Source: a bacterium
GTDB lineage: Bacteria; UBA8248
Direction: 5' to 3'
Assembly: GCA_965261085.1 (NCBI GenBank)
Contig: OZ253442.1
Location: 2,080,001 to 2,144,000, forward strand
DNA: 64,000 nt
Positions 1 to 47,520 of the stretch are shown here, piece by piece; the stretch's first letter is position 1; every line of letters starts with the position of its first letter. The translations under genes and the position numbers were made by a program. The notes below the pieces were generated by a model, which saw only the letters and a list, made by a program, of their open reading frames with translations, made no database searches and had not been told where the DNA came from.

Positions 1-1
1 G

Positions 2-538
2 GGCGGGGCGGAGGGGCTCTCCCTGCCCATCCTCCGGCAAATCATACCGCTCTACTTCGCGATGGGGCTCACGGCGCTCTCGGTTTTCCTCGTGATGCGG
101 TGGCTCGAATCGAGCCGCTTCGGCCTGAGGCTCCTCTCGATTCGCGAGGACGAGACGGCGGCGGATACGCTGGGGACGAACACGACCCTCTACAAGCTGG
201 TCGCCTTCATCATGAGCGCGTTCTTCCCGGGCGTCGTGGGGGGGATTTACGCCCGCTACATCACGTATATCGACCCCGAGACGGTGTTCAACATCCTCTT
301 CAGCGTCCAGATGGTGCTCATGTGCATCCTGGGCGGGAGGGGGACGGCGTGGGGTCCCGTTATCGGGGCGACGGTGCTCTATCTCATTCTGGAATTCACC
401 TGGGCGAATTTCCCCCACTTCCACAAGCTGGCGTCGGGGACCCTGATCGTCCTGATCATTCTCTACGCGCCTCGTGGGATCATGGGCTTTATCTACGGGA
501 GGGGGCTCGCGCAGTTGCGGCCCTCATTCAAGAATTGA
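2..538 (+). CDS. Branched-chain amino acid ABC transporter permease (LivM-like), 5'-truncated by window edge
   Basis: Hydrophobic ORF with the motifs SIREDETAADTLG and ILGGRGTAWGPVIGA; frame stays open to the window start. Confidence 0.85.
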   Translation, partial: GGAEGLSLPILRQIIPLYFAMGLTALSVFLVMRWLESSRFGLRLLSIREDETAADTLGTNTTLYKLVAFIMSAFFPGVVGGIYARYITYIDPETVFNILFSVQMVLMCILGGRGTAWGPVIGATVLYLILEFTWANFPHFHKLASGTLIVLIILYAPRGIMGFIYGRGLAQLRPSFKN

Positions 539-607
539 CCCCCCACCGCATCAGCCTTCGCCCAAAACGCTCGGCTTCTGCGACTCCCCCTCAAGGGGGG
601 AGTAATT
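539..607. repeat. REP/MITE-like palindromic element, family A (core ACTCCCCCTCAAGGGGGGAGT)
   Basis: Core at 583-603; near-identical copy at 1907-1973. Confidence 0.75.
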
Positions 608-694
608 CTTCTCTCTCGTCGGTCGGCAATATTGCCCAAGGGGGGATTGATTCCAAAAAGGGGATGGGGCTCGTAAGGGCGCCGTAAGGTCGGC

Positions 695-1657
695 TTAATC
701 GACGTAAATACAGGTTCCCGCCTCTCCGCGCAGGGCCGGGAGGGCATCTTCCAGGGCGGCGATGCAGATGCGCTTGCCTCCCCCTTCGAGAAAGCGGATC
801 GCCGCCTCTATCTTGGGTCCCATGCTGCCGGGCGGGAAGTGGCCCTGGGCGTGATAATTCTTGATCTCGGATAGCGAAACTCTATCCAGTTCGCGCTGCT
901 GCGGCGTGCCGAAGTGGACGGCCACCCTGGGCACGGCCGTCAAGATCATCATGTCCTCTACGCCTAAGACGTTGGCCATGAGGGCGGAGGTCAAATCCTT
1001 GTCGATGACGGCGTCGAGCCCCCGACGCGCGCCGTCGGCCTCGCGCACGACGGGAATGCCCCCGCCGCCGCCCGCGATCACCACGGCGCCACTTTGCGCT
1101 ATGGCCTGGATGAGCGAGATGTCCACGATGTGTTTAGGCCTGGGGGAGGCGACCACGTGCCGCCAGCCGCGGCCCGAGTCCTCGCGCATCGTCCAGCCCA
1201 TCTCCTTCTCATACCGCCTGGCTTCTTCTTCCGTGTAGGTGTAGCCCACGAACTTCGTCGGCGCGTCGAAGGCCGGATCGTCGGGGTCGACCTCGACCTG
1301 GGTCAGGAGGCAAACCACGTGGCGCGGGTCGCCCGCGCGCCTGAGCGCGTTCTCGAACGCCTGCATGAGCAGGTAGGCGATTCCCCCCTGGCTGTGAGCG
1401 ACGCAGATGTCGAGCGTCATCGGCGTCACCTGCTCGCTCGAAATCGCCTGTCGCATGAGGATTTTGCCCACGACGGGGCCGTTTCCGTGCGTGATGATGA
1501 GTTCGTTCTTGAGTTGTAGGAGGGGCAGCAGCGCGCGGCCCGTCGCCGCAGCGATGGCGGCCTGCTCCTCGGCGGTGCCGCGTATCTCGGGCGGATGGGT
1601 CGCGTTGCCGCCCACGGCGACGAGGATGCGTTCGGGAAGTTCGGGCGGGGAGGCCAT
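695..1657 (-). CDS. arcC: Carbamate kinase
   Basis: Motifs VAVGGNA, ITHGNGP, GGGGIPV, AVIDKD, GSMGPKIEAA; start placed at ATG 1657 after a GGAGA RBS. Confidence 0.9.
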   Translation of the reverse strand: MASPPELPERILVAVGGNATHPPEIRGTAEEQAAIAAATGRALLPLLQLKNELIITHGNGPVVGKILMRQAISSEQVTPMTLDICVAHSQGGIAYLLMQAFENALRRAGDPRHVVCLLTQVEVDPDDPAFDAPTKFVGYTYTEEEARRYEKEMGWTMREDSGRGWRHVVASPRPKHIVDISLIQAIAQSGAVVIAGGGGGIPVVREADGARRGLDAVIDKDLTSALMANVLGVEDMMILTAVPRVAVHFGTPQQRELDRVSLSEIKNYHAQGHFPPGSMGPKIEAAIRFLEGGGKRICIAALEDALPALRGEAGTCIYVD

Positions 1658-1906
1658 CAGCGGTATCTCCCAATAAACCCCGGCCTTCGGAAGCGGCGGC
1701 ATACAAATGCGGGTACAAGTCCCGCGCCGTCCTAAAAGCCGGGAGGAACATCTTACAACAAGCGGGGCGTTGTGGGGTAGAGAAATTTTTTGGGGGCAAG
1801 CACGACTGATGAAGGAGCGATTGCCGATTGAGGAAGGTATCGGTTCGCAACTCCTCGCTCCTTGCTCCTCGCTCGAAAGAATTCCTCCTTCATCAGTCGG
1901 AATTCA

Positions 1907-1973
1907 CCCCCCACGCATCAGCCGTCGCACAAACCGCTCGGCTTCTGCTACTCCCCCTCAAGGGGGGAGTGAT
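1907..1973. repeat. REP/MITE-like element family A, copy 2
   Basis: CGCATCAGCC...CGCTCGGCTTCTGC.ACTCCCCCTCAAGGGGGGAGT as at 539-607. Confidence 0.75.
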
Positions 1974-2051
1974 TTTGGAATTTTCCTTGTTGGGATTTGA
2001 TCCGCTCGGTTGGAAACCCTCATTCTTTAATTGTCATTGACCCGCATTGGG

Positions 2052-2121
2052 AATCACTCCCCCCTTGAGGGGGAGTCAGTGAGGTAAGGGCGTAAGCCCG
2101 CAAGCGAACTGGTGGGGGGTG
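2052..2121. repeat. REP/MITE-like element family A, inverted copy
   Basis: ACTCCCCCCTTGAGGGGGAGT core at 2056-2076; the flank is the reverse complement of 58213-58250. Confidence 0.7.
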
Positions 2122-2266
2122 AATCGCGACCGAGAAGGGAGCGATTGCTCCTTTTCAAGTCAGGCAGCCCCTCCTTCATCAATCGGGTTTGGCCCACACC
2201 CCCCGTTCATCCATACTCAAGCGGCGGATGGCGACGCGTAAGTCGCGCGCGAGTCGAAATAAGGGC

Positions 2267-2296
2267 TTGACAAGAATGGAAAATTTACCGCATTAT
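2267..2296 (+). promoter_or_regulatory. Putative sigma70 promoter for the long lipoprotein leader
   Basis: TTGACA (2267-2272), 18-nt spacer, CATTAT (2291-2296). Confidence 0.55.
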
Positions 2297-2302
2297 CCTA
2301 AT

Positions 2303-3100
2303 GCCGAGTAATTACACGAGAGCAGCCGCCCAAGGGACGCTCGCTGAATGCAGGACGGGCCTCATTCCAGAGGGCCGGAACGGGCGGGAACCACCTTGCG
2401 AAGTATGCACTCGCGTATGGCTTGGCGAAGCCCGGAAGACGACGACCCGGAAGGTTCCGGGCTTCAGTAGCAAATATCACGAGGCTAGAGGACTCGACTC
2501 ATCATGAAGCATGCCGCAAATCCCTCTCCAGTCTCGTGAATCAGTCAATCAGACGGCCCGGAGTTTTTCGTTCGCGCAAGCGGAGGCGCTCCGGCGCAGG
2601 GAAAGACGGTAAGCCCGGCGGGAGCCGGAGAAGCAGTAAATCACGAGGCTAGGCCAGAGGACTCGACCCGCGATGAAGCACGCCACGAATCCCCCTACCA
2701 GTCTCGTGAATTCACAGGCCATCGGCCCGGAGGCCCGGTTTCGCGCAAGCGGCGGCCCGGCCCCGGGAAAGATTGAAACCCGGGCAACGCCCGGATAAGG
2801 AGAATCGAAATTTCGGCTCGGGCCGGAGCGGTTTCATATCACGAGGCTGGAGGACTCAAACCATGATGATTCCTGAAAAGACTCCCACGCTAGTCTCGTG
2901 GATAAGCCGGCAACCGGCCCGGACTCGGCTGTCCGGGCCGGGGGCCTCGCGCTCCGGCGCCTGCCTGAAACGAATAAAAGCCCGATAACGGATGAAAGTC
3001 GGAAAGACAAACAGAAAGGAGGTTGGTTAAATCCAGACACTTCGGTTTTGTAGTAGCCAAAGTTCTTTAATAATATCACGAGACTAGGAGGACTCAAAAA
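2303..3100 (+). ncRNA. Candidate long structured 5' leader or ncRNA with three tandem RBS-sequestering hairpin units
   Basis: Hairpins TCACGAGGCT...AGTCTCGTG(A) at 2477-2539, 2641-2709 and 2839-2901, each enclosing GAGGACTC plus an ATG; many GNRA/UUCG-capped stems between them; no credible long ORF. Confidence 0.65.
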
Positions 3101-4633
3101 GTGATGAAACTCACCAGTAATAAAATCTTTTCATTCATGCTGGCGGCGGTGTTTGCGCTGACGCTCGCCGGCTGCGGCGGCGGCGGCGGCGGTACGGCTG
3201 CGGTGGATCCGGATCCTCCGGTGGTGACGCCGGAGCCTACCCCGCAGGAGATGTGCGCGGCGGATGGCGGGCGGTTTGAAGACGACGGGTCGTGCACCTC
3301 GGCCGCCGATCTCGAGACAGAACGTATAGCGGCGGAGGAGGCGGCAGCGGACAAAGTAGCAGATGCTACGAAATCGGCCGGTACGAAAGAAGAGGCCATC
3401 GGCGACGAGGCCGAAAGCGACGGTGCTGGCGGTCTCGGCGGCGCTACCGCTACTGCTCTCGACATCGAACACAAAGACGGCGCTGTGTCGATCGCGGTCA
3501 GCAGAGGCACCGGCGATGATAAGGTGGATTTCATGTCGGCCATGGATCTGACCGGCGTGGATGGCAGCACAGGCAGCATGAACTTGCTCGGCCCCAATGA
3601 TGACGACGTGACGGAAATCGCTATCGTCTACACCGACATCGACACGCCCACGCCCACGAAGTTCGGGGATGAGGGCACGGATGTCACGCTGAACGCCAAC
3701 CCTAAAACCACTAACGGCGAAGACTTCCAATCTGTCACTATCATCAATGATGATTTGGCGAAGATAGCGACGGATGGCATTACCGCTACAGGTGCTGGTG
3801 AGATCACTGTCCTGGCGGCAGTCGAGGACAACGACCAAACGGCGGATGTGGATGAGACCGTTGCGGCGTTTGAAACCGATGCCACCTTCGACGGCGCGGA
3901 TGGCAAATTGAAGTGCGCCCGCGACACCAACTGCATGGTCACGCTCGACGCGGACGGCAAGATAACTGATTTCAGCGCCGGATGGGAGTTCACACCCGCC
4001 GATGGCGCTAAGATCGACGTGGAGGACACTGACTACCTCTGGTACGGCGCCTGGCTGATGAAGACGGCGCAAGATGATGGCTCGGATGAATACAACCAGG
4101 TCGAGACCTTCGCGGATTCGACGCTTGTTGAGGCGAACAACGTTGGTAATGTCGATGGCAGCGCGGAATATAAAGGCGGCGCGGCAGGCGTGTACGTGAG
4201 AAACGTGTACGTACCATCAACTACGGGTGAGCAGAAACTCGACTATGCCAACTCCGGCCACTTCACGGCGAACGTCAATTTGACGGCGACCTTCGGTCAG
4301 ATGAACGCAGAGGGTTGTACTGGTGCTAACTGCGGCACCATCGCTCCCAACTTGATCAACACCGTAAGCGGAACCATCGACAACTTCAGCTTGTCCGGCG
4401 GCGAGGATGCGAGCGGCTGGGGCGTGGATGTGGCAGCCGGTATCAACGGCGCTGATCTTGAGAACGGAACGGCCAAGGGCGGTGGAGGTGATGATGGGTC
4501 GATTTCCGGAAACTTCCGCGGTACCGATACCGATGATGACGGTGCCATCGCGCCGAAAGCTCTGGTCGGCGAGTTCAACGCCGAGTTCACGAACGGCTCC
4601 GTGGCCGGTGGTTACGGTGCGAGAAGGCAGTAG
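3101..4633 (+). CDS. Surface lipoprotein 1 with C-terminal TbpB/transferrin-binding-like beta-barrel (possible Slam substrate)
   Basis: AGGAGG RBS at 3086-3091; signal peptide with lipobox LAGC then poly-Gly; C-terminus GSAEYKGGAAGVY...GEFNAEFTNGSVAGGYGARRQ. Confidence 0.8.
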   Translation: MMKLTSNKIFSFMLAAVFALTLAGCGGGGGGTAAVDPDPPVVTPEPTPQEMCAADGGRFEDDGSCTSAADLETERIAAEEAAADKVADATKSAGTKEEAIGDEAESDGAGGLGGATATALDIEHKDGAVSIAVSRGTGDDKVDFMSAMDLTGVDGSTGSMNLLGPNDDDVTEIAIVYTDIDTPTPTKFGDEGTDVTLNANPKTTNGEDFQSVTIINDDLAKIATDGITATGAGEITVLAAVEDNDQTADVDETVAAFETDATFDGADGKLKCARDTNCMVTLDADGKITDFSAGWEFTPADGAKIDVEDTDYLWYGAWLMKTAQDDGSDEYNQVETFADSTLVEANNVGNVDGSAEYKGGAAGVYVRNVYVPSTTGEQKLDYANSGHFTANVNLTATFGQMNAEGCTGANCGTIAPNLINTVSGTIDNFSLSGGEDASGWGVDVAAGINGADLENGTAKGGGGDDGSISGNFRGTDTDDDGAIAPKALVGEFNAEFTNGSVAGGYGARRQ

Positions 4634-4646
4634 AAACAGAACAGAG

Positions 4647-4722
4647 CAAGACGCCTGTGGTCTCGGGGCTTGACGATGAGCCCCGGGGCCGGGGCGAACC
4701 TAACAAGAAAGAAAAGGGGATT
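4647..4722 (+). other. Conserved 3' hairpin downstream of lipoprotein 1
   Basis: GGTCTCGGGGCT/AGCCCCGGGGCC stem followed by AAGAAAGAAAAGGGGATT; homologous to 8138-8211. Confidence 0.6.
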
Positions 4723-4747
4723 GCAAAGCAAGGCGAGTGACGCATTT

Positions 4748-4854
4748 TGGGGGTTACTCATTGGTTGCTCTCTATCGTCGGGAGCAAATTTACCGACCCA
4801 TGCTACAGAGTTTGAGTCCTCTCGGTGTGGGGAGGGAATAATGAGTAACCCCCA
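4748..4854 (+). ncRNA. Candidate 3'-derived small RNA carrying an anti-RBS loop
   Basis: Perfect 15-bp stem 4748-4762/4840-4854 enclosing two inner hairpins; TTTGAGTCCTCTCGGT (4811-4826) is complementary to the lipoprotein RBS regions. Confidence 0.55.
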
Positions 4855-4913
4855 CCTCTTCGCTATACCCGGTTTCCCCAAGTTTGGCAAGCTCAGGTTG
4901 GATTGATTCACAG

Positions 4914-4948
4914 AGGCGGTCCCGAGAGAAGGGGCCGCCTTTTGTTTT
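4914..4948 (+). terminator. Intrinsic terminator
   Basis: AGGCGGTCCC-loop-GGGGCCGCCT followed by TTTGTTTT. Confidence 0.75.
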
Positions 4949-5004
4949 GGTGTGGGGAAGAATGCAAACGCTCCCGCATTGGTCTCGGCAAACGCTCCTT
5001 TCTC

Positions 5005-5196
5005 GGGGTTGTTGAAAAAGACCCCTTTTTAGAGACTAGAGGGGACACCCCTTTCGACTGGTAAAAGCAACCCCCCTGTCCCCCCTTGTCAGGGGGGCTT
5101 TTCTTCCACCCCCTCGTCGGGGGGCATCGCCTTTACCCCCCTGACAAGGGGGGACAGGGGGGTTGCTCCCTTGACAAAGGCTTTTTCAACAACCCC
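5005..5196. mobile_element. MITE with IS1182-type ends enclosing a 32-bp perfect inverted repeat
   Basis: 16-bp TIR GGGGTTGTTGAAAAAG/CTTTTTCAACAACCCC matching the ends of the IS at 8275-9796; internal IR 5066-5097/5136-5167. Confidence 0.75.
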
Positions 5197-5364
5197 TCTT
5201 CGGTCAGAATTGACCCTCAAGGGGGGAGTGAATTTCCTCTCTCATCAATCGGCAAACGCTCTCGCATTGGTCGCGTCAAACACTCATTCATCAATCGTGT
5301 TTGACCTTCATCGGTCGGAAGAATTCCACCCTGATCGGTCGCGTTTGCTCCTCATCGGTCGGAA

Positions 5365-5394
5365 TTGACGAAGCGCGCGATCTGTTCATATAGT
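5365..5394 (+). promoter_or_regulatory. Putative sigma70 promoter of the small membrane protein gene (duplicated at 9966-9995)
   Basis: TTGACG-N18-TATAGT. Confidence 0.55.
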
Positions 5395-5441
5395 AATGGA
5401 TGTCCCGAAGCGCCGGAGGACCCGTCGCCAAGGAGAAACGC

Positions 5442-5687
5442 ATGACGACGTATGAATACCTGAACCTCACCGCCTCCTACGGCGGCCTTGCGCTGATCTG
5501 CTACGGCATCCGCGTCATGGCGAAGGGCGCCGAAATGCGCGCGACCGACTCCGAGCGCAAGCACGAGCAGGTGATGACCGCATCCGAGCGCAGGCACGAG
5601 GAGTCGATGACGTCCCTGCGCGAACTCATCGACGGGCAGGCGGAAAGCCGCATGGCCCTGCGCAAACTCATCGAGCGAACCGGATAG
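5442..5687 (+). CDS. Small protein (81 aa), N-terminal hydrophobic helix plus coiled coil, unknown function
   Basis: AAGGAG RBS before ATG 5442; hydrophobic LTASYGGLALICYGIRVM; internal repeat SERKHEQVMT/SERRHEESMT; duplicated. Confidence 0.65.
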   Translation: MTTYEYLNLTASYGGLALICYGIRVMAKGAEMRATDSERKHEQVMTASERRHEESMTSLRELIDGQAESRMALRKLIERTG

Positions 5688-5699
5688 CGAACCACAAGG

Positions 5700-5808
5700 T
5701 CGTCATTCCGGCGCATGCCGGTGGCGACCGTGAGGTTGACCAGAACCAAAGTGGAACGTCCGGCGTCGGGCGTTTCTGCACCCCGGATAAAACGCTCCGG
5801 GATGACGA
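5700..5808. repeat. GTCATTCCGG-type palindromic REP-like element (second copy ~10301-10410)
   Basis: TCGTCATTCCGG ... CCGGGATGACGA terminal inverted repeat. Confidence 0.6.
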
Positions 5809-5870
5809 GCCAAACCTTTATCCGCCGCAGCAAACTCTCTCGCGTTTGACGCGTTTGATCTCACTCGGTT

Positions 5871-5900
5871 CCCTGCCGGAACCGGCAGGGGGCTTTTTTT
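5871..5900 (+). terminator. Intrinsic terminator upstream of lipoprotein 2
   Basis: CCCTGCCG-GAAC-CGGCAGGG then GGC and T7. Confidence 0.6.
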
Positions 5901-5966
5901 GCTCGAACGCGAGTGAGGAGAGGGGGTCAATATGTTATTATAACGAGACCAGAGGGGACTCAAAAA

Positions 5967-8126
5967 GTGATGAAACTCACCGGTAATAAAATCTTTTCAT
6001 TCATGTGGGCGGCGGCCTTCGCGCTGACGCTGGCCGGCTGCGGCGGCGGCGGTGGTGGTGGTGCGTCGGACGATACCATGACGACACCGTCAGTACCCGA
6101 CCAGGCGATCATGGCGGCGAAAGATGCGGCGGCGGAAGCTGCGGCAGAGGCTACGGCGGCGCTGAATGCAGCGAAGGAGGCCGTAGACGGCGCCAGTGCA
6201 GACCAGGATTATGACGCCGTGCACTACGCTCTCGCCACTACCGAACTGGGCAAGGCCAAGGATGCCAAGGCGGCTGCGGAGGCCGCACAGGCGGACGCCG
6301 AGATGTTCGCCAAGGCGGTTGCGGATGCCAAGAAGGCTGCGCCTCCGGCTTCTTCGGATCAGGCCGAGTTTGAAGCAAGGCTGGCCCTGGCGGATGCCAA
6401 GACTGCAACGGCGAGCGCCGTAGCGGCGGCGGGTGCGGCCGTGACGGCGACGAAGGCGGCTGCGAGAGCGGCGGCGGCTGCGGTGACCAAGGCGACGGCG
6501 GCAAGGACGAATGCCGCTGGAGCCGAGGCCGCGAAGAAGGCGGCGGATCAAGCGGCGAAGGACGCGGCGGCCGCCAAGAAGACGGCGGATGCGGCGAAGG
6601 CCGCCGTAGCGAAACTCAATGATGACGGCATCGGCACCAGGAAGGGTGCTGCGGACCTCGAGTCGGCTGCGGACACTGCTGCGGGCAATGCAGCCACCGC
6701 CATGAGGAAGGCGAATGAAGCCAAGGCGGCTGCCGAAAAGGCGCGGGACGATGCCATGGCTGCGGCTAACACGCACGTTCTGGGCTTGTTCAAGGCGGCG
6801 AATGGAGACGATATTACATTTGTCGGCAGTGAAGATGATGCGGATATCGCCTCTGCTCTCGGAAGAGCGAAATCCGCTCGGAGAAAGGCCGTTATCGAAG
6901 CAATCGGAACAGCGGCGGACGCCCGACTCGGAGCTGAAGTTGTGATTAAGTGGCCTGCCGACGTGGCAGCCAATCCTGATGCTGCACCACCTACGGAGGC
7001 CGTGCCCGGAGCGCTTTCGATTGAGGTCATCCCCACCGGCGGCTCTGAGATTCCCTTCCGCGCGGAAGCCGTGGAGGATGACCCTTTTACGGATCGAGAC
7101 GAGTCCATGTCGAAGACGGCCACCAAGATCGACGGGTTGCCCGGCTTCAAACACGGGTATGCAGTTTCGGATGGCGGGTCCCATACAATCGTCTTCACCG
7201 ACAAGGAACAGTCGACTCCGGCCGTTCCGGAGAAGACCGTCACCTTGACCTTAGATAACCGGCCCGTGACTGCTTCTCGGGTTGTCCTGCCGGAAGGTGC
7301 AACCACTCTTTCAAACGCCACCTACGATCATGACGGTGACCCGGATACGTTTGGGGTTACAGCCACATTCACGTGTGGTTCAACCAACCCGAGTGATTGC
7401 TCGTTTTCAATTCAAGACGGGAAACTGACATCTCTTGTTGGATATGTAGTTGATGTCTCTGTAACCGATTTTCTACTAGCTGCCGCAAAAGATGGAGTAG
7501 ATGATAATGACTACCTCGCCTTCGGCGTCTGGCTGAGAGTCGACGAGGACGGCAACACGGATGGCGAGCTACCGGCCGTCGGCGTATTCGCAGACGGCGG
7601 AACGCCTTTCGCTACGTCTGCAGCTCTTATCGGTACGGCGACTTACCGGGGCGCTGCTACGGGCGTTTATACCCAGGGAAGCGCGGTTGATTACTTCCAA
7701 GGCAGCGCCACCTTGACGGCCAACTTCGGCACGAAGCCCGAGATGGGTGAAGACGACATGATGGGAGCCATCACCGGCATGATTCACGACATCGTGGCGG
7801 GTGGTGTTTCCATGCGCGATGTTATTCTCCTGAACGCTGATTTTACGAATGCTGATGGTAAGCCCGTGGATAACATTACTGCGGCAGGCGGCTTCACCGG
7901 AATGGCCCGCATGGGCGCGCCCACCGTGACAGGCGACGTGGCCTCGCACCCCTACAACGGCGCATGGGGCGGGCAGTTCTACGGTCCGGCTGCGGATGAA
8001 GACGCGACAGGCGTAGATGCCCTTCCGCCTGCGGTTGCCGGCGCGTTCGGCGTGACCGGCGCCACGGGTGAAGGCGATGCCGCCGTCACCAGAAGTTACG
8101 TGGGCGCGTTCGGCGCGCGCAGGTAG
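5967..8126 (+). CDS. Surface lipoprotein 2 with Ala-rich coiled-coil stalk and TbpB-like C-terminal barrel
   Basis: Nearly the same RBS, GTG-ATG start and signal peptide (LAGC-GGG) as gene 1; Ala/Lys-rich helix ~6110-6770; C-terminus GTATYRGAATGVY...SYVGAFGARR. Confidence 0.8.
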   Translation: MMKLTGNKIFSFMWAAAFALTLAGCGGGGGGGASDDTMTTPSVPDQAIMAAKDAAAEAAAEATAALNAAKEAVDGASADQDYDAVHYALATTELGKAKDAKAAAEAAQADAEMFAKAVADAKKAAPPASSDQAEFEARLALADAKTATASAVAAAGAAVTATKAAARAAAAAVTKATAARTNAAGAEAAKKAADQAAKDAAAAKKTADAAKAAVAKLNDDGIGTRKGAADLESAADTAAGNAATAMRKANEAKAAAEKARDDAMAAANTHVLGLFKAANGDDITFVGSEDDADIASALGRAKSARRKAVIEAIGTAADARLGAEVVIKWPADVAANPDAAPPTEAVPGALSIEVIPTGGSEIPFRAEAVEDDPFTDRDESMSKTATKIDGLPGFKHGYAVSDGGSHTIVFTDKEQSTPAVPEKTVTLTLDNRPVTASRVVLPEGATTLSNATYDHDGDPDTFGVTATFTCGSTNPSDCSFSIQDGKLTSLVGYVVDVSVTDFLLAAAKDGVDDNDYLAFGVWLRVDEDGNTDGELPAVGVFADGGTPFATSAALIGTATYRGAATGVYTQGSAVDYFQGSATLTANFGTKPEMGEDDMMGAITGMIHDIVAGGVSMRDVILLNADFTNADGKPVDNITAAGGFTGMARMGAPTVTGDVASHPYNGAWGGQFYGPAADEDATGVDALPPAVAGAFGVTGATGEGDAAVTRSYVGAFGARR

Positions 8127-8137
8127 TAGAAGAAAAA

Positions 8138-8211
8138 GCAAGACGCCTTTGGGCCTCGGGCTTATCAAGCCCCGGGGCCGGGGGCGATCCGATAAGAAAG
8201 AAAAGGGGATT
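8138..8211 (+). other. Conserved 3' hairpin downstream of lipoprotein 2
   Basis: GGCCTCGGGCTT/AAGCCCCGGGGCC stem plus AAGAAAGAAAAGGGGATT; homologous to 4647-4722. Confidence 0.6.
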
Positions 8212-8274
8212 TCCGAAGCGGGGAGGGAGAGCGTCGAAGGGGAGCGCGCCCTTCGATACAAACGCTCCTTTCTC

Positions 8275-9796
8275 GGGGTTGTTGAAAAACCCCTGACTCT
8301 ATGCTTGGATGTATGGATATTACGCGCCCGAGAAGGGAATATCCGCGATGTTGGGACGCAAGAACCGCGCCCAGATGGATTTGTTCATCACCGGTTCGCT
8401 GGAGAGGTTGATTCCCGAGGATCACATATTGGCCCGCGTGAACCGCGTTCTGGACCTGAGTTGGCTGCGCGAGGAAGTGGCGGATTGTTATTGCGCGGAC
8501 AACGGCCGTCCTGGGATCGACCCCGAAGTGGCGGTTCGGTTGATGTTGGCGGGCCTTCTGCTGGGGTTCGTGCACGACCGTCGGTTGATGCGCGAGGCGC
8601 AGGTGAACATCGCGATCCGGTGGTTCATCGGTTACGGGCTGGAGGATCGGCTGCCGGATCATTCGAGCCTGACGCGGATACGGCAGCGCTGGGGGGAGGC
8701 CCGGTTCCGGGAGATATTCCGCCGCACGGTCCGTGCGTGCCTGGATGCGAAGGTGGCCAAGGCCGAAGTCGTGCACGTGGACGCCTCATTGATCCGCGCG
8801 GACGTGAGTTGGGAGAGTCTGGTGGAGCGTCACGTGGACGAGGTGATAGCGGAGAACCCCGTCGAGGAGGAGGCCGGGAAGAAGGGTGGAGGAGGCCGCC
8901 GTGGCGGGGGTTCCGGGAAGGTGAGCCGGACGGACCCGGACGCGCGGCTGGCGAGAACGGGCGGGGGATTCGAGCCGAGCTACAAGCAGCACGCTGTGGT
9001 GGACGACACGCGCGGGGTGGTGCTCGACGTATCGGTGACGGAGGGTACGGTGAACGAGCGTGAGGTGCTCGAATCGCAGGTGGAAGCGGTATGCGAGGTA
9101 TCGGGGCGCGCGCCCGCGATGGTGACGGCGGACTCTGGCTACGCCTACTCGAAGGTCTACGCGGCCCTGGAGCGCCGGGGTGTGGCCGCGCTCATTCCGG
9201 CGAAGAGGGAACCCTCGCAGAGCCGTGTTCCGTTGCGCCTGTTCCGCTACGACGCGCGGCACGACATCGTGAAGTGTCCGCGCGGCAAGATACTGAGCCC
9301 CCGTCGGCCCGCAAAGGGGGGGCGTTATTATCGTTCGAAGACCCGTGATTGCGCGGGCTGCGCGCTTCGCGAGGATTGCCTGCCGAAGGCGTGGTCGAGC
9401 AAGGTGGTGTTGGTTCCGCATGCGTATCCGGCGCTGTTGCGCGCGCGCCGGCGCCATGCGCGATGGAGGGAGGAGGAGCGGCGGATGTACCGGCGTCATA
9501 TGTGGCGCTCGGAGGGCTACCACGGCGAGGCGAAGACCTGGCACGGGCTTGCGCGCGCGGTGCGGCGCGGTCTTGAGAACATGAAGATACAGTCCTACCT
9601 GACGGCGGCGGCGATCAACCTCAAGCGGCTCTCCGCCGCACTTGCTGCAAGGTTATTCGCCCTCTGGAGGGCCTGGTCGGCCCGGGAAGAGCCTCTGTGC
9701 GTCCATCGCGGCCTCGCAAGCTGCGCGGGCTTCCTGTCCGCCGCCGCGTGACCCTCCATACCGCCCGCTCCCGAAACCGGGTTATTCAACAACCCC
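8275..9796 (+). mobile_element. IS1182-family insertion sequence
   Basis: TIRs GGGGTTGTTGAAAAACCC / GGGTTATTCAACAACCCC; 5-bp direct repeat TTCTC at 8270-8274 and 9797-9801. Confidence 0.9.
8348..9751 (+). CDS. IS1182-family DDE transposase
   Basis: GRPGIDPEV, PDHSSLTRIRQR, HVDAS, TADSGY, CPRG...C-x2-C-x4-C, EGYHGEAK. Confidence 0.9.
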   Translation: MLGRKNRAQMDLFITGSLERLIPEDHILARVNRVLDLSWLREEVADCYCADNGRPGIDPEVAVRLMLAGLLLGFVHDRRLMREAQVNIAIRWFIGYGLEDRLPDHSSLTRIRQRWGEARFREIFRRTVRACLDAKVAKAEVVHVDASLIRADVSWESLVERHVDEVIAENPVEEEAGKKGGGGRRGGGSGKVSRTDPDARLARTGGGFEPSYKQHAVVDDTRGVVLDVSVTEGTVNEREVLESQVEAVCEVSGRAPAMVTADSGYAYSKVYAALERRGVAALIPAKREPSQSRVPLRLFRYDARHDIVKCPRGKILSPRRPAKGGRYYRSKTRDCAGCALREDCLPKAWSSKVVLVPHAYPALLRARRRHARWREEERRMYRRHMWRSEGYHGEAKTWHGLARAVRRGLENMKIQSYLTAAAINLKRLSAALAARLFALWRAWSAREEPLCVHRGLASCAGFLSAAA

Positions 9797-10042
9797 TTCT
9801 CAGTCGCGTTTGACCTTCGGCGGCTACTCAGGGTGAGGTCGATACGGTGGCCATGCAAGACGAGGGGAACACGCTCGCTCCCAGGGCCGGGTTTTTCAAC
9901 AGCCCCTCCTCACTCGGATTTGATATTCATCACTCGCGTTTGACACTCCCGCGCATCGGTCTGGATTGACGAAGCGCGCGATCTGTTCATATAGTAATGG
10001 ATGTCCCGAAGCGCCGGAGGACCCGTCGCCAAGGAGAAACGC

Positions 10043-10288
10043 ATGACGACGTATGAATACCTGAACCTCACCGCCTCCTACGGCGGCCTTGCGCTGATCT
10101 GCTACGGCATCCGCGTCATGGCGAAGGGCGCCGAAATGCGCGCGACCGACTCCGAGCGCAAGCACGAGCAGGTGATGACCGCATCCGAGCGCAGGCACGA
10201 GGAGTCGATGACGTCCCTGCGCGAACTCATCGACGGGCAGGCGGAAAGCCGCATGGCCCTGCGCATACTCATCGAGCGAACCGGATAG
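10043..10288 (+). CDS. Small membrane/coiled-coil protein, copy 2
   Basis: Identical to 5442-5687 except K to I near the C-terminus. Confidence 0.65.
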   Translation: MTTYEYLNLTASYGGLALICYGIRVMAKGAEMRATDSERKHEQVMTASERRHEESMTSLRELIDGQAESRMALRILIERTG

Positions 10289-11003
10289 CGAACCACAAGG
10301 TCGTCATTCCGGCGCATGCCGGTGGCGACCGGGAGGTTGACCAGAACCAAAGTGGAACGTCCGGCGTCGGGCGTTTCCGGATACCGGATAAAAACACTCC
10401 GGGATGACGAGCCAAACCGTTATCCGCCGCAGCAGAATTCCTTCTTGATCAGTCGGCAAACGCTCTCGCGCATTGGTCGCGTTTGATCTCACTCGCTCGC
10501 GTTTGACGCGCAATTCCCCGCATTTGGCGTCGCCGCGCCCGTAGCGGGATGCGCGAGAATGCCGTCCGCAAATGCAGTTTCCCGCTTGCACTTGAGCATC
10601 ATGAGGAAGGCACGATGAAAAAGGGAATTTCAGGGGATCATTTCTTCCGCACGCACCTGGCGAATCCCTCGCGGCGGTCGCAATCGCATTTGGCGGACCT
10701 CGCGCGCTACCCGCAGGCCGACGGCTCCGTCGGGGCGATGGAAAGGCGCGGGGGCGGGAGGAGAACGGGGGTTTCGGAATTGATGAAAAATACGATAAAT
10801 ATCGATTAATACATGAAAAGGTTTATGGCTCATCCTACCAGGACAATCTATTATAATTCATGTAATTGTAGAGTTATATTAAAGTAGTACATTATAGAAT
10901 TATCGAAATTTATCGAATTGAAAACTTTTCTCAAACCCCCGCATTTGCCCGCATTTCCCCGCACGGAGTCATCGTTTCAGCAGCCACCAGGTGAACCGGG
11001 GGG

Positions 11004-11537
11004 TCACCTTTTCAGCAGCCACACGCCGTCCTCGCCATCCACCTCGCGCATCCTGACCTGAATGTGCTCCTGTAAGGATGTGGGCACGTTCTTGCCGATA
11101 AAATCGGGCCGAAACGGCAATTCCCTGTGGCCGCGGTCTATCAGGGCGGCGAGCCAGATTTTACGGGGCCTCCCGAGCTCCATGATGGCGTCGATGGCCG
11201 CGCGGGCCGTCCTGCCCGTGAAGAAAACGTCGTCGACTAGTAATACTCCCCGATCCGTCAGGTCGAAATCGATGAGCGTGGGCTCGAAACCGCGCCCCTC
11301 GGTGGGGTGCCCCGCGTCGTCGCGGTGGACGCCGATATCGAGCGCGCCCAGGGGGGGCGAGATGCCTTCGAGTTCCTCGATATGCCCCGCAAGCCGCCTG
11401 GCGAGCGGTTCTCCCCGGGTGAGCACCCCGATGAGAGCGATGTTCTTATCCGCCGCGCACGCCTCCATCATCTCGGAGGCGATTCTCTTGAGCGAGAGTT
11501 CAAGCTCTTGCGCCGTCATGATGGATATCGGAGCCAT
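11004..11537 (-). CDS. pyrR: PyrR paralogue (pyrimidine regulator/uracil phosphoribosyltransferase)
   Basis: [18 protein letters not shown] motif; LIDRGHRELP.RPDFIGKN. Confidence 0.8.
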   Translation of the reverse strand: MAPISIMTAQELELSLKRIASEMMEACAADKNIALIGVLTRGEPLARRLAGHIEELEGISPPLGALDIGVHRDDAGHPTEGRGFEPTLIDFDLTDRGVLLVDDVFFTGRTARAAIDAIMELGRPRKIWLAALIDRGHRELPFRPDFIGKNVPTSLQEHIQVRMREVDGEDGVWLLKR

Positions 11538-11603
11538 GCAGGGTACCTGGAGTTGTCGGAAACGGATTCAGGTCATCCTAGAACTTATGGGTTCGCGGAT
11601 CAA

Positions 11604-12929
11604 TCAATCATTCTTCGGAACCGGAAAATTCCGCCGGGCGAAGTCCCTGGCCTCCTCGGTTGTGGATATGCGCCCTTCGAGCTGCTCGTCTTCGAGCGCA
11701 AAGAGGATTTCCCCCAGCCCGCGCCCCGCCGGATAGCCTATTTCCATGAGTTCGTGGCCATCGAGCAAACGCGGCGGACGCAAGCCTTCCTCGTAAAGCT
11801 CGCCAAGTTTTCGCGTGCAGAATTCATACGTTCTTAAATTCCCGTGACTGGCGAGGCAATCGATACGGTGGAGTTCCAGCAATTCCTCGAAATACGGCTC
11901 GCGCAGGAATCTTTTCAGGCGGCTTTCGCGCATCTTTTCCACGTGCATGAAGCGCATGTGATTGGCGACCAACTCGTGGATTCTCGATGCGCGCGCTCTG
12001 GGCATGCGGAGCCTTTCGCAGATGCCCAAGCTCATCGCCGCGCCCGCCTTGTCATGCCCGTTGAAGCGGATTCTGTCGGTTTCGGTGTATGTAACCGGTT
12101 TTCCGACATCATGGAGCAATACGCCCCACGAGAGCGTCGGCGAGGCGGCGCGCTTGATGCGCAACATGGCGAGGACGTGCGTCCACACGTCCCCTTCTGG
12201 GTGAAATTCCGGCGGTTGCGCCACGCCCTTCATGGCGGCGACTTCGGGAAGGACGTATTCCAGGAGCCCCGAGGCGGCGAGCATGGCGAAGGCGCTATCG
12301 GCATTCTCGTGGGTCAGCATCATCGTCAACTCGTCACGAATCCTCTCCGGGCTTATTTTCCCGATGTTCTTCGCATGGGTTTCGATGGCGACGGCTGTCT
12401 TGGACTCGAGCGCGGAACCGAACCTCGCCGAGAAGCGAACCGCTCTCAGCATCCGCAAATGGTCTTCGCAGAACCTGAGATTCGCGTCTCCGATGGCCCG
12501 AATGATTCCGTCTTCGAGATCGCGCAGGCCGCCGACGTAATCGAGGACCCGGCTCGTCGATACGTCATAAAACAACCCGTTGATCGTGAAATCACGCCGC
12601 TTCGCGTCCCCTTCCTCATCGGAGGGCCGAACCGAGTCGGGATGTCTTCCGTCCCTGTAGGCGCCGTCTTCGCGAAATTGCGCCACTTCAAACTCCTGGC
12701 CATCCATGCGCACGAGCACCACGCCAAACTGCGCTCCCACCGCGATGGTTTTCTCGAAGCGGCCTTGCACGATTTGCGGCGTTGCATCTGTGGCGATATC
12801 CCAGTCTTTCGGTTGAGACCCAAGCAGGGCGTCCCTCACACACCCGCCCGCAAGAAGCGCTCTATGACCCGAGGCCTCGAGGGTCTGGATAATCTGAATC
12901 GCCGCATCCGGAGGCTTTATGTTCAGCAT
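11604..12929 (-). CDS. CCA tRNA nucleotidyltransferase / poly(A) polymerase family with HD domain
   Basis: GGCVRDALLG...DWDIAT, RRDFTING, EDHLRMLRAVRF, HPEGDVWTH, LLHDVGK. Confidence 0.9.
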   Translation of the reverse strand: MLNIKPPDAAIQIIQTLEASGHRALLAGGCVRDALLGSQPKDWDIATDATPQIVQGRFEKTIAVGAQFGVVLVRMDGQEFEVAQFREDGAYRDGRHPDSVRPSDEEGDAKRRDFTINGLFYDVSTSRVLDYVGGLRDLEDGIIRAIGDANLRFCEDHLRMLRAVRFSARFGSALESKTAVAIETHAKNIGKISPERIRDELTMMLTHENADSAFAMLAASGLLEYVLPEVAAMKGVAQPPEFHPEGDVWTHVLAMLRIKRAASPTLSWGVLLHDVGKPVTYTETDRIRFNGHDKAGAAMSLGICERLRMPRARASRIHELVANHMRFMHVEKMRESRLKRFLREPYFEELLELHRIDCLASHGNLRTYEFCTRKLGELYEEGLRPPRLLDGHELMEIGYPAGRGLGEILFALEDEQLEGRISTTEEARDFARRNFPVPKND

Positions 12930-47314: not shown

Positions 47315-47411
47315 TTTCCCTCTTGCTCTTTCCCGGAAAGACTGTTAGTTTTGAGGAAATGGCCCGGCTGGATGCTGCGCCGGGTGGAAATGACATGGTG
47401 ACATAGAAATT

Positions 47412-47444
47412 CCCCTTTAATGTCGTCCCGTGAGGCGGCGAAGG
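47412..47444 (+). promoter_or_regulatory. PyrR-binding RNA element
   Basis: CCTTTAA TGTCG TCCCGTGAGG CGGCG AAGG matches the CUUUAA...UCCNGNGAGG PyrR site. Confidence 0.8.
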
Positions 47445-47484
47445 AGGAAACCCGGATGCTTGCCATCTTCTCGTCTGTTCTCCG

Positions 47485-47520
47485 AACTCCATGCCCTTTG
47501 GGCATGGAGTTTTTTTTGTT
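47485..47520 (+). terminator. pyr attenuator terminator
   Basis: AACTCCATGCCC-TTT-GGGCATGGAGTT then a T-run. Confidence 0.85.

Follow-up and report, generated by a model that had tools for sequence, protein, structure and literature searches.

The window analysed here, 64,000 nt of contig OZ253442.1 (assembly GCA_965261085.1, positions 2,080,001 to 2,144,000, forward strand), comes from the genome of an uncultured, sponge-associated bacterium. It contains two paralogous lipoprotein genes, gene 1 (lp1) and gene 2 (lp2), and, within lp1's 3' untranslated region (3'UTR), a structured RNA element in which one hairpin loop is complementary to the ribosome binding site (RBS) of both genes. An initial annotation made from the letters of the window had described this element and proposed that its loop pairs with the two RBSs. 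The lp1 stop codon (TAG, 4631–4633) is followed by a post-stop hairpin (HP1), the element and an intrinsic terminator in that order, with 57 nt between the end of the element and the terminator stem. The terminator of the initial annotation is present as a terminator-like hairpin (4912–4942) followed by a T-run, and the element does lie upstream of it within the 3'UTR; no sigma-70-like promoter was found between the lp1 stop and the element (4634–4748).

Paralogues of lp1 occur in the source genome and across the genus; searches of Pfam, NCBIfam and PDB with the lipoprotein sequence returned no family match. Relatives found by protein search belong to uncultured metagenome-assembled genomes, some labelled Nitrospinota and one Candidatus Binatia. 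Seven paralogous 3'UTRs can be aligned over ~330 nt, through HP1, the element and a long hairpin ending in a T-run, while the coding regions upstream of them are divergent. HP1 is a conserved block of this alignment and recurs behind gene 2 at 8150–8180, where the 3'UTR is shortened and the element and its terminator are absent. The claim that gene 2 has neither the element nor the leader array of lp1 is borne out: it carries only the post-stop hairpin, and no TCACGAG-type repeats are present in its leader.

Fold of the 3'UTR element

Folded alone, segment 4746–4856 forms a three-way junction of −54.8 kcal/mol (z −6.89, with none of 200 shuffles as good), and the fold of the whole lp1 3'UTR has a z of −5.23. 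Positions of its helices and of their putative partners are collected in Table 1. The perfect 15-bp stem of the initial annotation (4748–4762/4840–4854) is present as an inverted repeat, as is its TTGCTCTC/GGGAGCAA hairpin, which contains one G-U pair. A second proposed hairpin, ACCGA/TCGGT, falls outside the minimum-energy fold and is unconserved. The fold backed by covariation instead pairs CC with GG, CCCAUGCU with GGUGUGGG, and AGAG with CUCU, so that only part of the anti-RBS sequence is displayed in a loop as had been supposed: UUUGAGUC is looped out, and the CUC(U) that follows it is stem. Opening the P3 loop costs 0.1 kcal/mol.

The strand preference is consistent with an RNA-level element read from the + strand, as was proposed at the outset. 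The opposite strand folds to −43.4 kcal/mol, ~11 kcal/mol less stable; G-U pairs are numerous; and the covariance model introduced below scores ~105 bits on the sense strand against ~30 bits on the antisense strand. Coding potential was considered and rejected because copies of the element differ by 1–2-nt indels and paired substitutions. A hammerhead-like reading was likewise discarded, since a comparison by eye did not match the hammerhead consensus CUGANGA/GAA to the strands of the junction, GG / AAYUGUA / GAAY, and the C varies; no Rfam ribozyme matched the element.

Table 1 Positions of the RNA element, its parts, its candidate partners and the lp1 transcript features in the window
Feature	Position	Strand	Description or basis
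Three-way-junction RNA element	4748–4854	+	Folds, inverted repeat, 105.5-bit covariance model match, covariation
P1	4748–4763/4839–4854	+	15 perfect pairs, G-U; closing helix
P2	4765–4772/4780–4787	+	TTGCTCTC/GGGAGCAA, one G-U
P2 loop UAUCGUC	4773–4779	+	7 nt; includes UCGU core, complementary to ACGA of the ATCACGA box directly 5' of the family RBS
P3	4793–4794/4834–4835, 4797–4804/4824–4831 and 4807–4810/4819–4822	+	CC/GG, CCCAUGCU/GGUGUGGG, AGAG/CUCU
P3 apical loop UUUGAGUC	4811–4818	+	8 nt; with the next CUC, the conserved anti-RBS core UGAGUCCUC
GACUCAAA			Stretch of the family RBS facing P3 loop UUUGAGUC
Gene 1 RBS region ACUAGGAGGACUCAAA	3083–3098	+	Complement of 4811–4826, 12+3 bp
Gene 2 RBS region ACCAGAGGGGACUCAAA	5948–5964	+	Complement of 4811–4826, 16 bp, one bulge, one G-U
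RBS-like site GGAGGACUCAAAC, leader repeat unit 3	2849–2861	+	Complement of 4810–4822
AGAGGACUC in leader repeat units 1 and 2	2487–2495 and 2656–2664	+	Repeat analysis
Lipoprotein gene 1 (lp1)	3101–4633	+	510 aa; signal peptide, LAGC lipobox, poly-Gly linker; open reading frame list and translation
Post-stop hairpin HP1	4659–4690	+	13-bp stem without T-run; minimum-energy fold
Intrinsic terminator of the lp1 transcript	4912–4952	+	12-bp stem and T-run; hairpin itself 4912–4942

A family of covarying copies

Copies of the element were collected by blastn, and a covariance model was then built from 24 of them. Searches with sense-strand scoring place five copies in the source genome and ~110 across 17 of the 23 genomes of the genus, with 3–16 matches in each element-bearing genome and none in the remaining six. 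Across 51 genomes of the class, the sole match outside the genus was one 44-bit copy in a member of another family (G042), located behind a lipoprotein gene and a small open reading frame (ORF). We inspected 20 loci from seven genomes, chosen from the blastn match list and thus a non-random subset of the ~110. At 19 of them the element lies 26–206 nt downstream of a paralogous lipoprotein ORF with a GAFGAxKQ-type C-terminal ending, which may resemble TbpB-type barrels; at the other it follows a different ORF. Of the 17 element-bearing genomes, 15 encode the C-terminal domain of the lipoproteins, as does one of the six element-free ones; all are kin and do not count as independent samples.

Covariation was assessed on 56 matches (46 distinct rows) that had been fitted to the model and therefore lean towards its structure. 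Standard pairs fill 97.7% of the paired-position cells, and 19 of the 30 pairs have changed on both sides, compared with 10.1 ± 1.4 in shuffled alignments, none of which reached 19 in 500 trials, and with 4–12 in controls with slid pairings. Three pairs of P1 switch from AU to GC in 16–21 of 45 rows. P2 and P3 covary as well, and the frequent G-U pairs are in keeping with an RNA transcribed in the + direction. The same helices were recovered when 24 copies were aligned and folded independently with MAFFT/RNAalifold.

Searches for known RNAs gave no assignment. Rfam 15 covariance models found only a PyrR binding site in the whole window and, at E up to 10 over 2300–6100, nothing overlapping 4748–4854. 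ARAGORN called no tRNA or tmRNA within window positions 1–12000, and the 53 such genes called genome-wide overlap none of the five element copies. Among the matches listed in a literature search on these organisms, no title or abstract opening named the RNA or the gene family. With ~110 copies and good covariation, the element makes up a new family of structured RNA that is well supported and absent from Rfam.

Besides the helices, the loops and the junction are conserved. Every one of the 32 distinct copies linked to a lipoprotein gene, that of the distant G042 among them, keeps the loop core UGAGUCCUC despite differing stems. Conservation of the loop behind homologous genes had been set in advance as a test of the antisense proposal, and it holds while the stems covary. 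The other distinct copies among the 46 comprise eight at a separate locus that carry UUGGGUCCUC and six with other loops. Of the 46 distinct copies, 43 have UCGU in the P2 loop; the strands of the junction (GG, GUA and GGGAA[CU]) hardly vary, and a near-invariant GAGUU flanks the conserved 9-nt core of the P3 loop. The G042 copy retains the loop AUUGAGUCCUCCCC, and the leader associated with it has GGGAGAGACUCAA, which could pair with AUUGAGUCCUCCCC.

Some copies stand apart from the lipoprotein genes. At the 'c2' locus of the source genome (G000:C1:765504-766250), a sigma-70-like promoter recognized by eye and a conserved leader block are followed by two tandem elements with differing P3 loops, and no lipoprotein gene is present; Rfam returned only a 12.6-bit chance match there. 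Tandem copies occur at matching places in other element-bearing genomes, of which six further loci were aligned, and G006 has three copies. We considered the c2b loop GUUGGGUCCUC together with GAGGACCCAAC, in a lipoprotein leader at source-genome position 804335, as a compensatory change and rejected it. The 15-mer partner is exact in one of the 23 genomes, its two one-mismatch matches are both in element-free genomes, and its 11-mer marks mostly RBSs of unrelated genes.

Several lipoprotein paralogues have in their 5' leaders a separate conserved block of ~100–130 nt, 'leader X', which is also found next to an incomplete piece of the element (source-genome copies at 765581-765711, 1673044-1672938, 804040-803941, 257306-257243 and 4008438-4008319). 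Its c2 copy has no Rfam match, and the cassette could thus contain leader X as another structured RNA. Element copy c3 is preceded by a two-gene lipoprotein unit (1672512-1668809, − strand) in which both genes seem to have frameshifts near the 3' half, as pseudogenes or through errors of assembly.

Complementarity to the family RBS

The loop core UGAGUCCUC is complementary to the RBS of the lipoprotein family, AGGAGGACUCA. At 18 of the 20 inspected loci, the unit upstream of the element begins with a gene whose RBS has a G[GA]GGACTCA motif, and this is equally so when another lipoprotein gene, with an RBS unlike it, intervenes. Counts of AGGAGGACTCA amount to 103 in the 17 element-bearing genomes (21 for a reversed-pattern control) and to five in the six element-free genomes (control two). 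When coordinates were compared by hand, 12 of 15 elements in genome G013 and nine of 11 in G002 had the motif 1.7–3.9 kb upstream on the same strand. The combination is rare in the source genome, where four of 1,207 GAGGA-type RBS candidates continue with CTCA: three belong to family genes with three otherwise dissimilar leader classes, and the fourth to an unrelated enzyme.

A second site of contact is suggested by the P2 loops. Loops of type-B copies, CUCGUGAU, complement AUCACGAG of class-1 leaders, and those of type-A copies, CAUCGUCG, complement CGACGAUG of the leader at 68.7 kb of the source genome. We regard this complementarity to the box 5' of the RBS as suggestive only.

Within the window, all three pairings proposed by the initial annotation could be reproduced. 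Segment 4811–4826 pairs with the gene 2 RBS region with its one bulge being an A. The pairing with the gene 1 RBS region includes two G-U pairs and one A/C mismatch, and duplexfold draws it as 11+3 bp; an 11-nt complement, 3088–3098/4811–4821, lies within it. Leader repeat unit 3 offers a perfect 12-nt complement (2850–2861/4810–4821) that extends to 13 bp with G2849-U4822. Computed as hybridisation energy plus opening energies, the net interaction with lp1 is −6.4 to −8.6 kcal/mol for loop-centred segments and −5.1 kcal/mol for the longest segment, and that with lp2 is −4.9 to −6.4 kcal/mol. The contacts with both genes beat shuffled sequences: z is −4.1 against the lp1 RBS region and −3.5 against the lp2 leader (none of 300 shuffles as good in either case), and −3.0 against the whole 814-nt lp1 leader (two of 300). 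RNAcofold placed only 0–4 intermolecular pairs between the element and its targets, since it treats contacts between a loop and a strand as pseudoknots.

A number of results weigh against an antisense role for the loop. The antisense core has its CUC part inside the P3 stem, which would cost ~5 kcal/mol to open, and the accessibility-corrected energies are modest (−5 to −9 kcal/mol). Loops bearing CCUC can pair with any GGAGG Shine-Dalgarno sequence. Lipoprotein RBSs had been expected to head a genome-wide target list, and they do not: plain hybridisation ranks lp2 20th and lp1 95th (top 0.1–0.6%) among 16,160 candidate initiation regions, a set of crude ORF-based starts that includes many false ones and was ranked without accessibility. 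Among 871 seed-bearing sites, leader unit 3 is 8th, lp2 18th and lp1 outside the 40 best listed. In scans with an ungapped pre-filter or restricted to seeds, the top matches are GC-rich and directed to the stem side of P3, so that the ranking is of limited value.

The commonest natural combination also fares poorly. A class-2 leader and a type-B element match over 9 bp only, at an energy no better than chance in the 300-nt leader (z 0.0; 128 of 300 shuffles did as well), and the 9-mer is one of three found (E 0.4, blastn-short). The pairings in G042 and at 255 kb of the source genome are not significant (40 and 25 of 300 shuffles as good). Where a unit comprises two genes, the second has the RBS UUAGGGGGCAA, which lacks complementarity to the loop, and the P2 loop of the window's element matches its own leader in cis over only ~4 bp. 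The loops of the c2 copies, which stand alone, are different ones, and what looked like a compensating partner for one of them is unconserved. Finally, the motif and the element are duplicated together with the gene cassette, and their co-occurrence is therefore not independent evidence.

Other features surround the two genes. A palindromic insert resembling a miniature inverted-repeat transposable element (MITE) occupies 5005–5196, where a 16-bp outer inverted repeat, GGGGTTGTTGAAAAAG, encloses a perfect 32-bp inner inverted repeat; it produces spurious microRNA matches in Rfam. The motif GGGGTTGTTGAAAAAG is found again at 8276–8292, adjoining an insertion sequence (IS) whose IS5/IS1182-like DDE transposase gene (8309–9751; Pfam DUF772, DDE_Tnp_1_6 and DDE_Tnp_1) lies directly behind the shortened 3'UTR of gene 2. 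A small ORF at 5400–5687 (95 aa, no family match) has its own promoter-like site at 5365–5394, and a near-identical second copy lies at 10044–10290, one copy thus standing behind each lipoprotein gene. The PyrR binding site (RF00515) is at 47410–47519 and scores 55.8 bits, just over the gathering score.

Possible functions and relation to known systems

We tentatively favour an antisense module, icaR-like or resembling a 3'UTR-derived small RNA (sRNA), that acts on the RBS of its own gene family, a reading to which we assign somewhat less than an even chance. The sequences show the fold, the covariation, the number and position of copies, the invariance of the loop and the family-specific complementarity; that the element is transcribed, is perhaps processed and pairs in vivo with an effect on expression is our inference. 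Under this hypothesis a lineage-specific module of ~105 nt would be transcribed within the 3'UTR of hypervariable surface-lipoprotein genes, with a long closing helix and a conserved junction that present two hairpins, each with a conserved loop. In P3, the loop UUUGAGUC with CUC is antisense to AGGAGGACUCA, and the UCGU core of the P2 loop to the upstream ATCACGA box. The accessible 8-nt loop may nucleate pairing with the translation-initiation region of family mRNAs, after which pairing would spread into the CUC side of P3, occlude the Shine-Dalgarno sequence and lower translation or stability.

Such a module might work in cis, by a 5'-3' contact like that of icaR, or in trans after cleavage of the 3'UTR, like OppZ or CarZ, with gene 2 and other element-free paralogues as candidate targets. 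Three points would favour action in trans. Gene 2 is without the element yet has the longest match; the paralogue at 68.7 kb has the motif and a P2-loop partner and is also without the element; and, in the genomes inspected, a promoter-bearing locus without a lipoprotein gene carries two to three tandem elements. A more elaborate version, in which every family mRNA would carry a two-loop module directed at the ATCACGA box and AGGAGGACUCA, strongly expressed members would silence their sisters in trans, and leader decoy hairpins and the c2 locus would tune the threshold, giving expression that resembles allelic exclusion, seems to us unlikely.

It is also quite possible, if on balance improbable, that the element is a structural or protein-binding part of the 3'UTR, such as an exonuclease barrier, a processing signal or a protein site for stability or localisation. 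The RBS match would then be incidental because CCUC meets GGAGG. A very stable closing helix and a conserved junction beside conserved loops are what is seen in RNAs with a defined three-dimensional fold, and the element sits between the post-stop hairpin and the terminator in a conserved 3'UTR. This explanation also accommodates the chance-level RBS match in the commonest class, the absence of lipoprotein RBSs from the top of the target ranking, and the c2-locus copies, which retain P1, the junction and the P2 loop, and not the anti-RBS loop; six of the 46 distinct copies are without GUCCUC. A pure nuclease barrier, however, needs neither a conserved 9-nt loop core nor an invariant UCGU. An incidental match also leaves unexplained why ACUCA is kept after the Shine-Dalgarno sequence in three dissimilar leader classes and is nearly confined to the family. 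No candidate protein partner was identified, though no search for one was made.

We think it very unlikely that the element mimics a tRNA, with a T-arm-like hairpin on an acceptor-like helix that would be read by RNase P or Z or by T-loop modification enzymes. The P3 apex AGAG-UUUGAGUC-CUCU resembles the T-arm GGAGG-UUCGAGU-CCUCU of tRNA-Thr(UGU) (source genome 3948513-3948588, − strand), with which the window's element has the 11-mer GAGTCCTCTCG in common. This tRNA is the sole carrier of GAGTCCTC among the 53 tRNA/tmRNA genes called, and the element has three helices and 5' and 3' ends that pair with each other. Against this, ARAGORN calls none of the five source-genome copies, there is no Rfam tRNA, tmRNA or other match even at E 10, and type-B copies share only an 8-mer with the tRNA. 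The loop has 8 nt, not 7, and no CCA or discriminator is conserved (P1 is followed by ACC, TTC, TCC, GCT or TGT), and we therefore treat the T-arm likeness as an unexplained resemblance. As a separate observation, the sequence GAGGACTCGA of leader units 1 and 2 looks like an antisense copy of such a tRNA-Thr T-arm.

Correia/NEMIS-type repeats are short, multicopy sequences with terminal inverted repeats that often lie behind genes and fold in mRNA. A DNA-level element of this kind, either a MITE/Correia-like mobile palindrome or a homology block for gene conversion of lipoprotein cassettes, would make the folding a by-product, and we rate it slightly lower still. The 15-bp terminal inverted repeats, the many copies per genome, some of them identical within one genome (the 56 matches reduce to 46 rows), the nearby IS and MITE-like sequences, and the conserved 5' and 3' flanks around very divergent coding regions are all as such an element would have them. 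Unlike Correia/NEMIS repeats, however, the element has inverted repeats that covary among copies with strand-specific G-U pairs, and two conserved internal hairpins, whose helices covary too. It is tied to one gene family, with 19 of the 20 inspected copies at one fixed position behind it and not scattered, and no target-site duplication was evident in the flanks by eye. Inversion of the gene at the 11–12-bp inverted repeat 3088–3098/4811–4821, an alternative raised by the initial annotation, has the repeat itself and nothing else in its favour and can be practically dismissed: the 18 of 20 loci with both motif and element have them in the same relative orientation and none of the 20 is inverted, G013 and G002 coordinates likewise agree, and no recombinase was found among five neighbouring ORFs scanned (an amino-acid kinase, an IS5-like DDE transposase and three ORFs that gave no match).

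To our knowledge, only a few individual bacterial genes have a 3'UTR known to regulate the mRNA it belongs to or a related one. In the present case a covarying scaffold, with a loop antisense to the family's own RBS, is kept throughout a family of surface proteins that evolves fast. If the pairing is functional, a modular post-transcriptional controller would travel with each gene copy, and it could explain balanced or selective expression of dozens of variable surface lipoproteins without protein regulators. If the two-loop silencing scheme were true as well, it would amount to an RNA-only circuit by which one or a few surface variants are expressed in a symbiont. Even with another partner for the loop, the new structured RNA family stands.

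The antisense module we favour can be set beside several known systems. In hok/Sok-type fold-back inhibition, long-range 5'-3' pairing closes the translation-initiation region, and in two-site kissing antisense RNAs of the OxyS-fhlA type, loop-presented sequences contact two nearby sites. The lipoprotein locus, unlike hok/Sok, is not a toxin-antitoxin system, and the two-site pairing suggested here (P2 loop with ATCACGA box, P3 loop with RBS) is predicted from complementarities of only 7–9 nt. The hbs mRNA of B. subtilis is reported to have a 5'/3'-UTR interaction that influences access by ribonuclease (PMC5737220). It comes from a single housekeeping gene.

Closer parallels are OppZ and CarZ of Vibrio cholerae, sRNAs derived from an operon 3' end that share its terminator, pair with their own transcript and inhibit translation (PMC7398697). 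The element resembles them, as far as its letters tell, in its 3'-end position and in a terminator common with the mRNA, an arrangement for which a promoter of its own is not required. OppZ and CarZ are processed by RNase E, are Hfq-type and use linear seeds, whereas the seed proposed here is presented as a hairpin loop by a rigid scaffold, and it is a gene family, not one operon, that has the module.

In the icaR mRNA of Staphylococcus aureus, a motif of the long, conserved 3'UTR is complementary to the mRNA's own Shine-Dalgarno region, so that initiation is blocked and a substrate for RNase III is created (PMC3868564). The lp1 unit has this design too, in that a motif of its 3'UTR can pair with its own Shine-Dalgarno region. 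The icaR motif is UCCCCUG and serves one gene (PMC3868564); the core described here is displayed by an apical loop, within a three-way junction that covaries. Unlike icaR, the element recurs after as many as ~15 paralogous genes in one genome, and element-free paralogues are matched as well.

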